Assembly (NCBI RefSeq): GCF_000026545.1
Contig: NC_011601.1
Strand: one strand, 5' to 3'
From: Escherichia coli O127:H6 str. E2348/69
Lineage (GTDB): Bacteria; Pseudomonadota; Gammaproteobacteria; Enterobacterales; Enterobacteriaceae
DNA: 64,000 bases
The position numbers were made by a program, and so were the translations under genes. How positions within the stretch are numbered: position 1 is the first letter of the stretch; each line of letters starts with the position of its first letter. Shown one piece after another: positions 5,682-10,469 of the stretch. Below the pieces are notes generated by a model. The model had not been told where the DNA came from and ran no database searches. It saw only the letters and a list, made by a program, of their open reading frames with translations.

Positions 5682-7001
5682 TTAACCGTGTTTATTTTTC
5701 AGTTCAAAGCGTGGTGAGACCAGACCATACAGTGTCCAACCGAGGAAGGTCACGATGGAACCGTATAGCATGGCTTCTTCCCCGGATGAGTACAGCGCAT
5801 AAAAGCTGTACATCGCGCCAACAAAAGCAACAAAGTTTGCAACTTTCGCTTTTGAGGGGGGCACATTAGCGACCTTCTGAATAATGACTAATGCCGCCAT
5901 TGACAGAATATACGGAATGATATTGGTCACCACGGCCAGGTTAACCAGCACGTTGAACTGACTGTTTAGCGACGGGCTAATCGTCATCAGCGCCAACCCG
6001 CTCTGGATAATCACAATGGTCAACATTCCCTGCACCGGTGCATCCACTTTGGTTACACGGGAGAAAATTTTAGGGAAGTAGCCTTCATCAGATGAAGATT
6101 TAAACACCTGGGCAATGGTGAACTGCCAGCCAAGCAGCGAACCGCAGCAGGACATCACCATCAGCGCCATAATGACTTTACCCACTTCCGGCGTGAACAT
6201 CTGCGCGAAGGCCAGACCAAATGGTGCCGTTGAATTTGCCAGCTCCATATTTGGCACAATCCCGGCAATCACGTTGGTGGAGACGATATAAATCACCGCC
6301 GCACCTAACGTACCGCCGAGTACCGCGATTGGCACATTACGTTCCGGGTTTTCCACTACATCAGTATTCGCACACGCAGACTCCAGACCAAGAAAAGCCC
6401 ACAGCGTCATAGCGATGGAAGAACCTACCGCACTGAAGAAGGGTGCATGATGCGGATTCCAGGAATCAACGTAAAGCGTCGGGCTAAACCAGAACCAGCC
6501 GATAATGCACAGGCCTACCACCGGAATAATGACCCCCCACACGGTAATGCTACTGATTTGCCCGGTAATGCGCGCACCACCAAAGTTAGCCACGGTACAA
6601 ATCCACAGCACCCCGATGGTCGCAAGACCAATCTGCACTGGCGACAAACTCGCGCCGAGCAGTTCGGTGCCGTAACCAACCGCCGAAATAGCAATCGCGA
6701 CGTTAGCAATCAGCAGCGAGACGCCGTAGGTATAGTTCGCCATAAAGTTACCGGATTTACCGAAAGCATACTCGGCATAACCGCCCATACCTCCTGATTT
6801 ACGGCTGAACATACCGCATTTTGCGAATGCCCATGCCAGTGCCATTGAGCCTACGGCTGTCACCAACCAGGAGATTATTGAGATTGTCCCAACTTCGGCA
6901 AGCTTTGTCGGCAGCATGATGATGCCGGAGCCCATCATGTTGACCATCGTCAGTATGGTTAACTGAACGACGCCCATCTTGTTCGATTTAGCCTGACTCA
7001 T
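5682..7001 (-). CDS. potE: Putrescine-ornithine antiporter
   Basis: 439-aa polytopic APC-family transporter; speF-potE operon synteny. Confidence 0.93.
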   Translation of the reverse strand: MSQAKSNKMGVVQLTILTMVNMMGSGIIMLPTKLAEVGTISIISWLVTAVGSMALAWAFAKCGMFSRKSGGMGGYAEYAFGKSGNFMANYTYGVSLLIANVAIAISAVGYGTELLGASLSPVQIGLATIGVLWICTVANFGGARITGQISSITVWGVIIPVVGLCIIGWFWFSPTLYVDSWNPHHAPFFSAVGSSIAMTLWAFLGLESACANTDVVENPERNVPIAVLGGTLGAAVIYIVSTNVIAGIVPNMELANSTAPFGLAFAQMFTPEVGKVIMALMVMSCCGSLLGWQFTIAQVFKSSSDEGYFPKIFSRVTKVDAPVQGMLTIVIIQSGLALMTISPSLNSQFNVLVNLAVVTNIIPYILSMAALVIIQKVANVPPSKAKVANFVAFVGAMYSFYALYSSGEEAMLYGSIVTFLGWTLYGLVSPRFELKNKHG

Positions 7002-9196
7002 AATTTTTCCCCTTTCAGCAGGGTGCTTTGCGCATCACGAGGCTTGATGACATAGCACCAAACTTGCTTACGACCATCATGTTCTTCGATATAGACACCC
7101 TGCAGCTCCGGTGCAAAACCTGGCAGCAGGTTGATGCCTTCTTCCAGAGCGCTGAAGTAACGCAGAACAGCACCACCCCAGATTTCACCAGGAACAACAC
7201 ACAGCACACCCGGAGGATAAGGAAGCGCACCTTCGGCAGCGATACGGCCTTCTGCATCCGGCAGACGAACCAGCTCCACTTCACCGCGTAAGTAGGCGTA
7301 GTTGGCTTCTTGCGGATTCATGCTGACGCGTGGGAAGTGTTCCTTACGGAACATCTCTTTTTGCAGTTGTTTCACGTTGTGGCGGGCATACAAATCATGC
7401 ATTTCCTGGCACAACTGACGAAGGGTATAACCGGCGTAGCGCTCTTCATGCTGTTTGTAGATGGAAGGCAGTACTTCTGATAATGGCGCGTCGGACTCAA
7501 GCAGTTTTTCGAAGCGTACCAGCAGAGCAGCAAGTTGCTGAAGTTTGGCCATATCTTCTGCCGGAGTCAGCAGAAAGAGGATGGAGTTAAGATCGCATTT
7601 TTCCGGCACTACGCCATTTTCGCGCAGGAAGTTAGTAAGAATCGTCGCGGGTACACCGAACGCTTCATATTCGCCGTTACGTGCATCAATACCTGGGGTT
7701 GTCAGCAACAGTTTGCACGGATCGACAAAGTATTGATTCTCTGCATAGCCTTCAAAAGAATGCCAGTGCTCACCTGGTACAAACTGGAAGAAGCGCAGAT
7801 CAACCGCAATTTGCGCTGTTTCATACGACTGCCAGGGTTTACCATCCACCAGTTCAGGTACGAATGGACGAATATGCTGACAGTTATCGAGGATCAGTTT
7901 GCGGGCATTAATGCCATTTACCACACAATCCATCCACATATTACGACCGCTGACACCTTCATGCATTTTGGCGTTGATATCCAGTGCGGCAAACAGCGGA
8001 TAGAACGGGCTGGTGGAGGCATGCATCATAAAGGCGTTGTTCATGCGTTTGTGCGATACATAACGCTGTTGCCCTTTGATATGGCTGTCTTTTTTATGGA
8101 TTTGTGAAGTCTGGGAAAAACCAGCCTGCTGTTTATGCACAGATTGCGTAACCAGAATACCCGGATCGTTCTCATTAAGATCCAGCAACAGTGGTGAACA
8201 GTCCGCCATCATCGGGATAAACTGCTCATAGCCGACCCATGCGGAGTCAAAGAGGATGTAGTCACACAGATGACCAATTTTATCCACCACCTGACGGGCG
8301 TTATAAATCGTACCGTCGTAAGTGCCTAGCTGAATAACGGCGAGGCGGAAAGGACGCGCCTCTTTTGCCCGCTGCGGTGCGACTTCCGCGATCAGTTCAC
8401 GCAGGTAACTTTCTTCAAAACAGTGAGCGTCAATACCACCGATAAAACCATACGGGTTACGTGCGGTTTCCAGATAAACCGGTGTCGCGCCAGCCTGTAG
8501 CAACGCTCCGTGGTGGTTAGATTTGTGGTTATTGCGGTCAAACAGCACCAGATCACCCGGTGTCAGCAGGGCGTTTAAAACCACTTTGTTAGAAGATGAA
8601 GTGCCATTTAGAACGAAGTATGTTTTATCGGCATTAAACACTTTTGCCGCATGTTGCTGTGCAATGCATGGCGCGCCTTCGTGAATCAGCAGATCGCCCA
8701 TTGCCACATCCGCGTTGCACAAGTCAGCACGGAACAGCGCCTCACCAAAGTATTCCACAAACTGATTCCCCGCCGGATGGCGACGGAAAAATTCGCCGCC
8801 CTGATGACCGGGGCAATCAAACGCGCTGTTACCCTGATTGACATAATCGACCAGTGCGCGGAAGAAGGGCGGGCGCAGTTGAGTTTCATAATGGCTGGCT
8901 GCGGTTTCTAACTGACGACCATAAAATTCTCGTCGCGATTCGCAATTCTCAAAGACACCCGAAATACGGGGCAAATACTCTGCGGGTACACGTTCTTGAT
9001 TTTCAGTAGCAATAAATACCGGGATGCCATAACCCGTGGCATCGATTTCATCGAGTTTTCCGCGTGTAACATCGTTGAGCGATAAAACTATTGCCGCCAC
9101 ATCGATATTACTGTTTTCATTAATATCGATACATTTTCGCTGCGTGGTAAAACAGTCCGGGCAAGAATCACTAACCGCAATTTTTAATTTTGACAT
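6998..9196 (-). CDS. speF: Inducible ornithine decarboxylase
   Basis: 732 aa from MSKLKIAVSDSCPDCF…; fold-III PLP decarboxylase; the supplied ORF has an N-terminal extension that was trimmed. Confidence 0.93.
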   Translation of the reverse strand: MSKLKIAVSDSCPDCFTTQRKCIDINENSNIDVAAIVLSLNDVTRGKLDEIDATGYGIPVFIATENQERVPAEYLPRISGVFENCESRREFYGRQLETAASHYETQLRPPFFRALVDYVNQGNSAFDCPGHQGGEFFRRHPAGNQFVEYFGEALFRADLCNADVAMGDLLIHEGAPCIAQQHAAKVFNADKTYFVLNGTSSSNKVVLNALLTPGDLVLFDRNNHKSNHHGALLQAGATPVYLETARNPYGFIGGIDAHCFEESYLRELIAEVAPQRAKEARPFRLAVIQLGTYDGTIYNARQVVDKIGHLCDYILFDSAWVGYEQFIPMMADCSPLLLDLNENDPGILVTQSVHKQQAGFSQTSQIHKKDSHIKGQQRYVSHKRMNNAFMMHASTSPFYPLFAALDINAKMHEGVSGRNMWMDCVVNGINARKLILDNCQHIRPFVPELVDGKPWQSYETAQIAVDLRFFQFVPGEHWHSFEGYAENQYFVDPCKLLLTTPGIDARNGEYEAFGVPATILTNFLRENGVVPEKCDLNSILFLLTPAEDMAKLQQLAALLVRFEKLLESDAPLSEVLPSIYKQHEERYAGYTLRQLCQEMHDLYARHNVKQLQKEMFRKEHFPRVSMNPQEANYAYLRGEVELVRLPDAEGRIAAEGALPYPPGVLCVVPGEIWGGAVLRYFSALEEGINLLPGFAPELQGVYIEEHDGRKQVWCYVIKPRDAQSTLLKGEKL

Positions 9197-9318
9197 TTTC
9201 CAACTCTTTATTTTTGGTAATAGCAGGTCCTCAATTTCTCGAATGAGAAATTGATCGTGCCGGAAAAAAAGCAAAGTTGCCCCGCTGATAAATTAATCAG
9301 AAGTTTGCTTTTTTCAGA

Positions 9319-9576
9319 ATGCAGAAACCCTTATCAGTCTGGTGGCTGATAATACAAGGGTTAACAGAGAATGAGCACTGCGGAATACAGGCATATGCCT
9401 GTAATACAGAGAGTCAGGAAGACCTGTACGCTGAAGTGCCCTTAGTCGGTAGACTAACGGGCATTGAAGAAGTGAAAGTCGAAGCTATTGCGATGAGCAA
9501 ACTTCATAATATGAGTTGTCCGCCTTATATGGGGCATAGTGCGGCTGTTATTTTCCATTTAATTTACCTTTCCTGA
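9319..9576 (+). CDS. Hypothetical 85-aa ORF (possibly the one annotated ybfK in K-12), antisense to speFL
   Basis: ORF-track only; no recognisable motif; overlaps speFL on the opposite strand, so it may be non-coding. Confidence 0.2.
   Translation: MQKPLSVWWLIIQGLTENEHCGIQAYACNTESQEDLYAEVPLVGRLTGIEEVKVEAIAMSKLHNMSCPPYMGHSAAVIFHLIYLS
9454..9558 (-). CDS. speFL: speFL ornithine-sensing leader peptide (34 aa) controlling the speF-potE operon
   Basis: Minus-strand ORF ATGGAAAATAACAGCCGCACTATGCCCCATATAAGGCGG… encodes MENNSRTMPHIRRTTHIMKFAHRNSFDFHFFNAR, upstream of speF. Confidence 0.8.
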   Translation of the reverse strand: MENNSRTMPHIRRTTHIMKFAHRNSFDFHFFNAR

Positions 9577-9791
9577 TGTGAATGAAGGTGAAGGTATTCT
9601 ATCCAGGAAATACGGTTGAACTGTGAAGGTGATCAATAAAAAATGATCAATCTTAATTTATTTAATGATGAGCTTTTTACTCAGTAATATAAAATATTGA
9701 ATTGTTATTTTTGTGTGTTATTTAAGATAAAAAGCCGTATTTATTATTACGGCTTTAATTAATAAAAGGCAGGATGTATTAAAATTAATAT

Positions 9792-10469
9792 TCAAAGCAT
9801 AAACCGATACCCAATACCGGTTTCAGTAATGAAATGGCGGGGGCGGGCGGGATCTTGCTCCAGTTTTTGTCGCAGATGCCCCATATAAATACGCAAATAA
9901 TGACTGTGTTCGACCGCGTTTGGTCCCCACACCTGGTTGAGGAGCTGGCGCTGGGTGAGCACTTTTCCCGCATTATTAAGCAACACTGCCAGCAGGCGGA
10001 ACTCAATCGGGGTGAGATGCACCTCTTCCTCGCCCCGATGGATCACACGAGCTGCTAAATCGACGGTAACATCGGAAAATTTCACCAGCGGATCGGGCGC
10101 GGCGGTGGCGGAGTGGCGACGTAAAGCGACGCGCAGACGGGCCTGCAATTCGCCAATGCCAAACGGCTTACTCAGATAATCATCCGCTCCGGCATCCAGC
10201 GCGGCGATTTTGTCGCTCTCTTCGCTACGTGCGGAAAGCACAATCACCGGCACCGCGCTCCACTGGCGCAGGTCGCGGATAAACTCAATCCCATCACCAT
10301 CGGGCAGGCCGAGATCGAGAATAATCAAATCTGGCTTACGGGTAGCCGCTTCCAGCAAGCCGCGTTGCAGCGTTTCGGCCTCAAAGACGCGCATCCCATC
10401 GCCCTCCAGCGCCGTGCGCAGAAAGCGACGAATAGCCTGTTCATCTTCAACAATCAGAACGTTTGTCAC
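9792..10469 (-). CDS. kdpE: Response regulator KdpE (OmpR family)
   Basis: 225-aa ORF with receiver domain and winged-helix domain; overlaps the kdpD stop. Confidence 0.95.
   Translation of the reverse strand: MTNVLIVEDEQAIRRFLRTALEGDGMRVFEAETLQRGLLEAATRKPDLIILDLGLPDGDGIEFIRDLRQWSAVPVIVLSARSEESDKIAALDAGADDYLSKPFGIGELQARLRVALRRHSATAAPDPLVKFSDVTVDLAARVIHRGEEEVHLTPIEFRLLAVLLNNAGKVLTQRQLLNQVWGPNAVEHSHYLRIYMGHLRQKLEQDPARPRHFITETGIGYRFML

Follow-up and report, generated by a model that had tools for sequence, protein, structure and literature searches.

The 64-kb stretch of DNA analysed here (64,000 nucleotides; hereafter, the window) matches the genome of Escherichia coli E2348/69 at 100% identity, and the RefSeq record of that strain places potE, speF, speFL, kdpE and kdpD side by side on the minus strand. 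speFL is a 34-codon open reading frame (ORF) with the product MENNSRTMPHIRRTTHIMKFAHRNSFDFHFFNAR. An ATG-initiated ORF of 85 amino acids runs across the same DNA on the plus strand. It spans the whole of speFL, extends for 135 nt into the speFL–speF leader and, at the other end, reaches 18 nt upstream of the start codon of speFL. The codons on the two strands are in register: the speFL ATG is the complement of codon 80 of the plus-strand ORF (CAT, 9556–9558). The stop codon of the antisense ORF (9574–9576) sits at the upstream edge of the Shine–Dalgarno region of speFL, with base 9574 common to both. The first-pass annotation had described an intact 34-codon speFL on the minus strand at 9454–9558, overlapped by an antisense 85-aa ORF. 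The list of ORFs agrees with that description on both counts, with an ATG ORF at 9319–9576 covering all of speFL, and the intact state of the leader gene is further confirmed by a match to known structures at 34 of 34 residues.

Table 1. Coordinates of the features of the speFL–speF control region in the window
Feature	Position	Strand	Basis
potE, after speF	5682–7001	−	RefSeq annotation, ORFs
speF, inducible ornithine decarboxylase, regulated gene; ATG at 9196	6998–9196	−	RefSeq annotation, ORFs
Structured speFL–speF leader, 257 nt	9197–9453	−	fold, terminator scan
85-aa ATG ORF, almost certainly a non-coding chance ORF	9319–9576	+	ORF list
Predicted hairpin GCCCGUUAGUC-UACC-GACUAAGGGC including the final two sense codons of speFL and its UAG stop	9438–9462	−	predicted minimum-free-energy fold
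speFL, 34-codon ornithine-sensing arrest (leader) peptide gene, UAG stop	9454–9558	−	ORF list, RefSeq, structure match
Codons I11-R12-R13 (AUA AGG CGG), within the HIRRXXH motif	9520–9528	−	sequence
Shine–Dalgarno region of speFL, AGGAAAGG, 8 nt upstream of the ATG	9567–9574	−	sequence
−10-like hexamer TAGAAT (9601–9596) and putative speF operon transcription start near 9589	9589–9601	−	inferred
kdpE intrinsic terminator, upstream boundary of the speF control region	9729–9756	−	terminator scan, coordinates
kdpE	9792–10469	−	RefSeq annotation, ORFs

The identity of the minus-strand gene is clear from several sources. All 34 residues are identical to those of the SpeFL chain of PDB entries 6TBV and 6TC3 (E = 7.6e-20), the UniProt name SPEFL_ECOLI is attached to the exact sequence and RefSeq labels 9454–9558 as 'leader peptide SpeFL'. 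The peptide can be laid out by domain as MENNSRTMP-HIRRTTH-IMKF-AHRNSF-DFHFF-NAR. It has the HIRRXXH sensor motif, as defined by Herrero del Valle et al. (bioRxiv 10.1101/604074), at residues 10–16 (H10-I11-R12-R13-x-x-H16) and a Phe-rich C-terminal effector domain (F20, F26, F28, F30 and F31). R12 and R13 are encoded by the consecutive rare arginine codons AGG CGG (9525–9520), which have been reported to keep a Rho-binding (rut) site exposed (bioRxiv 10.1101/604074; PMC6386406). The Shine–Dalgarno sequence of the Salmonella orthologue, orf34, is AGGA (PMC6386406).

The sole Pfam match of SpeFL is to PF10940 (SpeFL, formerly DUF2618), at 23.8 bits and E = 4e-5, under the gathering cut-off of 25 even though the 34-aa query is the founding member of the family; the shortfall is a threshold artefact owing to the very short length of the peptide. 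Neither SpeFL nor the product of the 85-aa ORF has a match in NCBIfam. An annotation built solely on profiles would therefore overlook E. coli SpeFL, the founding member, with PF10940 sub-threshold and NCBIfam silent.

A genome scan with a SpeFL alignment retrieved 80 loci from different enterobacterial species, giving 81 loci with the window. SpeFL is 34 codons long in all 81, and speF lies 191–381 nt downstream on the same strand in all 78 loci that have enough sequence. The family alignment shows no variation at residues H10, I11, R13, H16, R23, F26 and F31. Among the 77 distinct nucleotide sequences of speFL, the numbers of variable sites at codon positions 1, 2 and 3 are 13, 10 and 30 of 34, respectively, and the pooled pN/pS is 0.08 (dN/dS 0.033). 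speFL lies far beyond chance expectation, as judged from the identity to the solved structure and from the 80 species. With strong purifying selection, a fixed length and a fixed synteny with speF, it is the sole gene-like frame at this locus.

Some speFL loci are unusual in other respects. A T14K variant of SpeFL (WP_212736113.1, labelled 'hypothetical protein'; L002 1758–1862, L089 3136–3240 and L090 2741–2845, with codon 14 corresponding to window positions 9517–9519) accompanies a speF pseudogene in the 3 of 3 genomes inspected; the pseudogene is 1,969 nt in length and has a frameshift and an internal stop. Such co-occurrence fits a relaxation of constraint on the leader after the loss of speF. 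Two enterobacterial speFL–speF contigs are labelled as a Collinsella sp. metagenome-assembled genome (MAG; L004) and as Chryseobacterium sp. 18061 (L018), probably owing to contamination or mislabelling in public genomes. The Collinsella-labelled contig encodes the same SpeFL peptide as the window and has the same 85-aa antisense ORF too.

Two published studies describe how such a leader operates: Herrero del Valle et al. (bioRxiv 10.1101/604074), on a SpeFL sequence identical to that of the window, and Ben-Zvi et al. (PMC6386406), on Salmonella. For this exact peptide the mechanism is established: ribosomes translate the 34-codon speFL and, at low ornithine, terminate and depart at its UAG stop codon. 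Slow decoding of the rare AGG–CGG pair holds back the ribosomes that follow, leaving a C-rich rut site that overlaps speFL exposed, and Rho ends transcription before speF, just after a pause hairpin. At high ornithine, the amino acid is captured by the nascent SpeFL together with the ribosome exit tunnel via the HIRRXXH motif (residues 10–16). The Phe-rich C-terminal domain then prevents release of the peptide and the ribosome stalls at the stop codon, with queued ribosomes masking the rut site and allowing transcription to proceed into speF–potE. [quoted passage not shown] Ornithine-dependent stalling and Rho-dependent attenuation come from experiments on the identical K-12 sequence (bioRxiv 10.1101/604074) and on the Salmonella orthologue (PMC6386406). 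In published data, ornithine induction is affected when the speFL ATG is mutated. All of the sequence requirements of the published attenuation model were found in the window, and by analogy with K-12 the speFL of E2348/69 is expected to attenuate speF by ornithine-dependent stalling.

The correspondence with K-12 is close. K-12 SpeFL (b4803; bioRxiv 10.1101/604074) has the identical 34 amino acids, the UAG stop, AGG–CGG at codons 12–13 and the same 257-nt spacing to speF. Its leader belongs to the same allele as that of the window, with 97.5% DNA identity over 595 nt; a few leader single-nucleotide polymorphisms lie outside speFL and nothing functional differs. Salmonella orf34 (Ben-Zvi et al. 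2019, PMC6386406) is the orthologous 34-codon leader ORF upstream of speF, with a HIRRT-HIM core and consecutive rare arginine codons, and its reported mechanism combines Rho-dependent attenuation with sequestration of the speF ribosome-binding site. SpeFL is intact in both Salmonella loci of our set (L052 and L053). The Salmonella leader differs from that of the window in length (378–379 nt versus 257 nt) and is around 58% identical to it, and the longest in-register antisense ORF that overlaps speFL there is 37 aa, compared with 85 aa in the window. A functional parallel is found in TnaC of tnaCAB, in which a leader peptide and the ribosome likewise sense a free amino acid, release is blocked at the stop codon and the stalled ribosome masks a rut site from Rho (bioRxiv 10.1101/604074). 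TnaC is unrelated to SpeFL in sequence, however, with no homology, and senses tryptophan rather than ornithine to control another operon.

The leader RNA itself is highly structured. The 257-nt spacing between speFL and speF, which is also given by the earlier study (bioRxiv 10.1101/604074), includes a palindromic hairpin (9387–9402), a terminator-like hairpin with a U-run (9264–9286), a further hairpin (9231–9254) and the speF ribosome-binding region. A 401-nt leader fold has a predicted free energy of −107.3 kcal/mol (z = −3.78 relative to shuffled controls). The C/G ratio of the sense RNA is 1.4–1.7 over speFL and the proximal leader, a bias of C over G that is as expected for a putative Rho-binding (rut) region. 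The hairpin at 9438–9462 is kept in an alignment of 40 species, in which its closing pair covaries between C-G, U-A and U-G (14, 12 and 10 sequences, respectively); in the published model, this is the hairpin at which RNA polymerase pauses (bioRxiv 10.1101/604074). As a side observation, the terminator-like hairpin (AGCGGGGCAACUUUGCU followed by U7, minus strand) lies approximately 70 nt upstream of the start of speF, and might be an intrinsic attenuator or part of a structure that sequesters the ribosome-binding site.

This structure is relevant to one alternative reading of the plus strand. The plus strand might yield an antisense RNA, non-coding, which would act on speF expression by pairing with the speFL leader, with the ORF being incidental. 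Essentially nothing speaks for such an RNA beyond the high degree of structure in the region and the fact that antisense transcripts are common in E. coli. A scan of 8800–10200 against Rfam returned no match on either strand at E ≤ 1, for the speF leader or for an antisense RNA. No promoter-like site was found on the plus strand, although the consensus promoter scan is insensitive: it found no site on either strand and thus missed the presumed speF promoter too. The ten U-G pairs at the covarying position of the hairpin would be C-A mismatches in an antisense RNA, which indicates that the structural constraint acts on the sense RNA. We consider a regulatory antisense RNA extremely unlikely.

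Upstream of speFL, the start of the speF transcript can be placed provisionally. The orf34 ATG of Salmonella lies at +32 of its mRNA (PMC6386406), and the same spacing in the window would put the speF start at an A that is 7 nt after the −10-like hexamer TAGAAT. Around 30–55 nt upstream of this hexamer (9596–9601) is a direct repeat, ATTGATCA-N6-ATTGATCA, at 9630–9651 on the minus strand, with the palindrome TGATCA in each copy; this repeat may be a binding site for a regulator.

The antisense ORF lacks the properties that mark speFL as a gene. Its length is no more than is expected by chance: the window contains 150 ORFs of at least 85 aa, 78 of which are overlain by a far longer ORF; of the 78, 62 are antisense to it and 34 occupy the in-register antisense frame. 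That frame is the poorest in stops, and in using it the plus-strand ORF resembles shadow ORFs generally, although most of its length covers not a long gene but a 34-codon leader gene and non-coding leader RNA. Opposite speFL it is open because in-register stops would need TTA, CTA or TCA in the sense strand, all of which are absent here. The SpeFL of the window has no leucine and both of its serines are encoded by AGC, so that the 35 codons opposite speFL are open. The remainder is a 45-codon stop-free run (135 nt) in the leader, a length that a handful of the 81 lineages match. Across the 81 loci, the longest in-register antisense ORF that overlaps speFL has a median length of 37 aa (range, 22–128); full coverage of speFL is seen in just 19 of the 81, and a stop falls within the speFL span of this frame in 31, mostly opposite a TTA codon for Leu7.

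The first-pass annotation had proposed a conservation analysis of each frame, and had held that at most one of the two ORFs was likely to be a real gene. The comparison separates them sharply: over the 102-nt overlap with speFL, the plus-strand frame has a pN/pS of 1.80 and a dN/dS of 1.9 in the same 77 distinct sequences for which the speFL frame is constrained at a dN/dS of around 0.03. The value of 1.80 arises because the variable third positions of speFL are the first positions of the plus-strand ORF. The claim of a single gene is borne out, with 34 fixed codons under selection on one strand and, on the other, a frame without purifying selection, conserved boundaries or homologues named outside E. 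coli and Shigella. A low pN/pS (0.20) in the frame termed 'antisense +1' was rejected as a coding signal: this frame has its third positions in common with those of speFL, and it contains 1–4 stops inside speFL in 79 of the 81 loci.

Database comparisons place the ORF within a single lineage. A search of its product against 5.8 billion proteins returned 14 clusters, with no named organism outside E. coli and Shigella and no Pfam domain; the clusters are near-identical or chimeric fragments, with identities of 78–100%. A Pfam match to 'Doppel' (E = 0.069 over 11 residues) was dismissed as noise. In E. albertii, a 1-nt indel directly past the stop codon of speFL puts the upstream part of the antisense frame into another frame, and in Citrobacter braakii the antisense frame has a stop at the junction just past the end of speFL.

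The 85-aa ORF could be a young protein-coding gene restricted to one lineage, having emerged de novo on the strand opposite speFL in the allele of the K-12/E2348 type, with translation at a low level. In favour of this are its ATG start, its 85 codons and its intact state in the genomes with this allele (allele A) that we read: the window, K-12 and CRE78. Gene callers report it widely, it was once annotated in K-12 and it has been flagged for fitness despite expression below 1 ppm. However, the intact copies are at least 98.8% identical and so carry little weight as evidence of constraint, and both of the differences between the window and K-12 in this ORF are non-synonymous (S6P and W8R). None of the Shine–Dalgarno-like motifs AGGA, GGAG and GAGG occurs in the 19 nt (9300–9318) before the ATG at 9319. 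Codon usage is that of a noise ORF, with a log-odds of −0.07 per codon compared with 0.34 ± 0.13 for window ORFs of at least 300 aa, and 59% of the window's ORFs of 85–149 aa score as high or higher. The N-terminal 45 codons overlie the conserved hairpins of the leader RNA. The ORF is absent from E. albertii, from other genera and from around 62% of E. coli genomes, it has been dropped from the curated MG1655 record, and chance alone yields many ORFs as long as this one. On this evidence we regard a young gene as very unlikely, and judge from the sequence that the plus-strand ORF is almost certainly a non-coding chance reading frame.

The ORF has an annotation history of its own, as it almost certainly corresponds to the former K-12 gene 'ybfK'. 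A K-12 table lists ybfK on the plus strand ('>') directly before kdpE ('<'), at 720,060 in older coordinates. Allowing for a 779-nt offset between genome versions, this position matches the end of the plus-strand ORF, and ybfK, like that ORF, ends just before the spacer to kdpE. YbfK presumably has 85 aa; the equation is drawn from this length, the table position and coordinate arithmetic, and the name is absent from the database matches. A literature search for 'b4590' produced irrelevant matches only. The K-12 literature lists an 'uncharacterized protein YbfK', and Price et al. place YbfK at less than 1 ppm of protein monomers, yet describe it as 'important for fitness', a claim that a later paper repeats. 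It is cited as weakly expressed and important for fitness in bioRxiv 10.1101/038851 and PMC9927249.

The simplest reading is that the fitness effect assigned to 'YbfK' is probably due to insertions that disrupt the speFL–speF–potE leader or cause read-through into it. A very young de novo protein, made at a few copies per cell, could also account for the effect if its own disruption, rather than that of the speF leader, were responsible, but we hold this to be highly improbable.

The first-pass annotation had further stated that annotation pipelines often call the longer antisense ORF and miss speFL. This is true of part of the public record, where callers are older or biased towards length. 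The exact 85-aa product has been called, as a 'hypothetical protein', on at least 1,000 public contigs; of the eight GenBank places that we inspected, five have both ORFs called and three have the antisense ORF alone; and ybfK itself is a case in point. The preference of callers for the antisense ORF results from length bias, set against a 34-codon leader gene and a non-coding leader RNA. The statement does not hold for current reference annotation: speFL is annotated in all of the RefSeq/PGAP records inspected and the antisense ORF in none, and the curated MG1655 record contains speFL (b4803) and no ybfK, as does that of W3110.

Within E. coli, the region occurs in two deeply divergent forms. 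Sequence of the window type (≥95% identical) is present in 1,701 of 5,426 complete genomes (about 31%), and another allele, approximately 82% identical, is present in 3,338; the region is missing in around 380. A megablast search had suggested that the locus is confined to 1,706 of the 5,426 genomes, a result that we discarded, as the second, divergent allele lay below the sensitivity of megablast. In the majority allele (found in ST131, O157:H7 and G3/10), SpeFL is intact (MENNNRLMPHIRR...), but the antisense ORF has another start, meets a stop opposite Leu7 and is just 45 aa in length. When the window is compared with an ST131 genome, both of phylogroup B2, the flanks are 99–100% identical, and a patch at approximately 7400–9800 diverges progressively, with its non-coding parts down to 51–63% identity. 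This patch comprises the 5′ 1.8 kb of speF, the leader and the promoter (genomes compared: L088 and L084, ST131; L085, O157:H7; and L086). The leader of the window type shares 82–83% identity with the leaders of Citrobacter braakii and of a Raoultella MAG, but only 63% with its counterpart in the other E. coli allele, which in turn is 85–86% identical to the leader of E. albertii. speFL and speF are 257 nt apart in the window type; the other allele has 309 nt between them, 52 nt more. The split into two alleles appears to be either a recombination patch or a long-standing balanced polymorphism in regulatory DNA.

The majority allele also carries a 44-aa ORF, called by PGAP as a 'hypothetical protein' on the same strand as speFL, which shares the first 22 nt of speFL but reads them in a different frame, and which is absent from the allele of the window (L084 2390–2524, L085 2379–2513 and L086 2391–2525, all on the minus strand). 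Some genomes label it 'TonB-dependent receptor, frameshifted'. It is probably a spurious call or the remnant of a gene in the speF promoter region.

We conclude that the real element at this locus is, very probably, the speFL–speF–potE attenuator on the minus strand, and that the 85-aa plus-strand ORF is a by-product of it and not a gene. A SpeFL attenuator accompanied by a shadow ORF of this type is already known: structural and genetic studies have characterised speFL, which current reference annotation already favours over the antisense ORF. The practical value of the present analysis is in annotation hygiene, as the antisense product persists in public data, sometimes without speFL, and functional genomics has at least once treated 'YbfK' as a protein that affects fitness. 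The published mechanistic work on the speF leader in E. coli has all been on the minority allele. The two-allele split of this leader is a by-product of our analysis that may prove more useful than the verdict on the shadow ORF.
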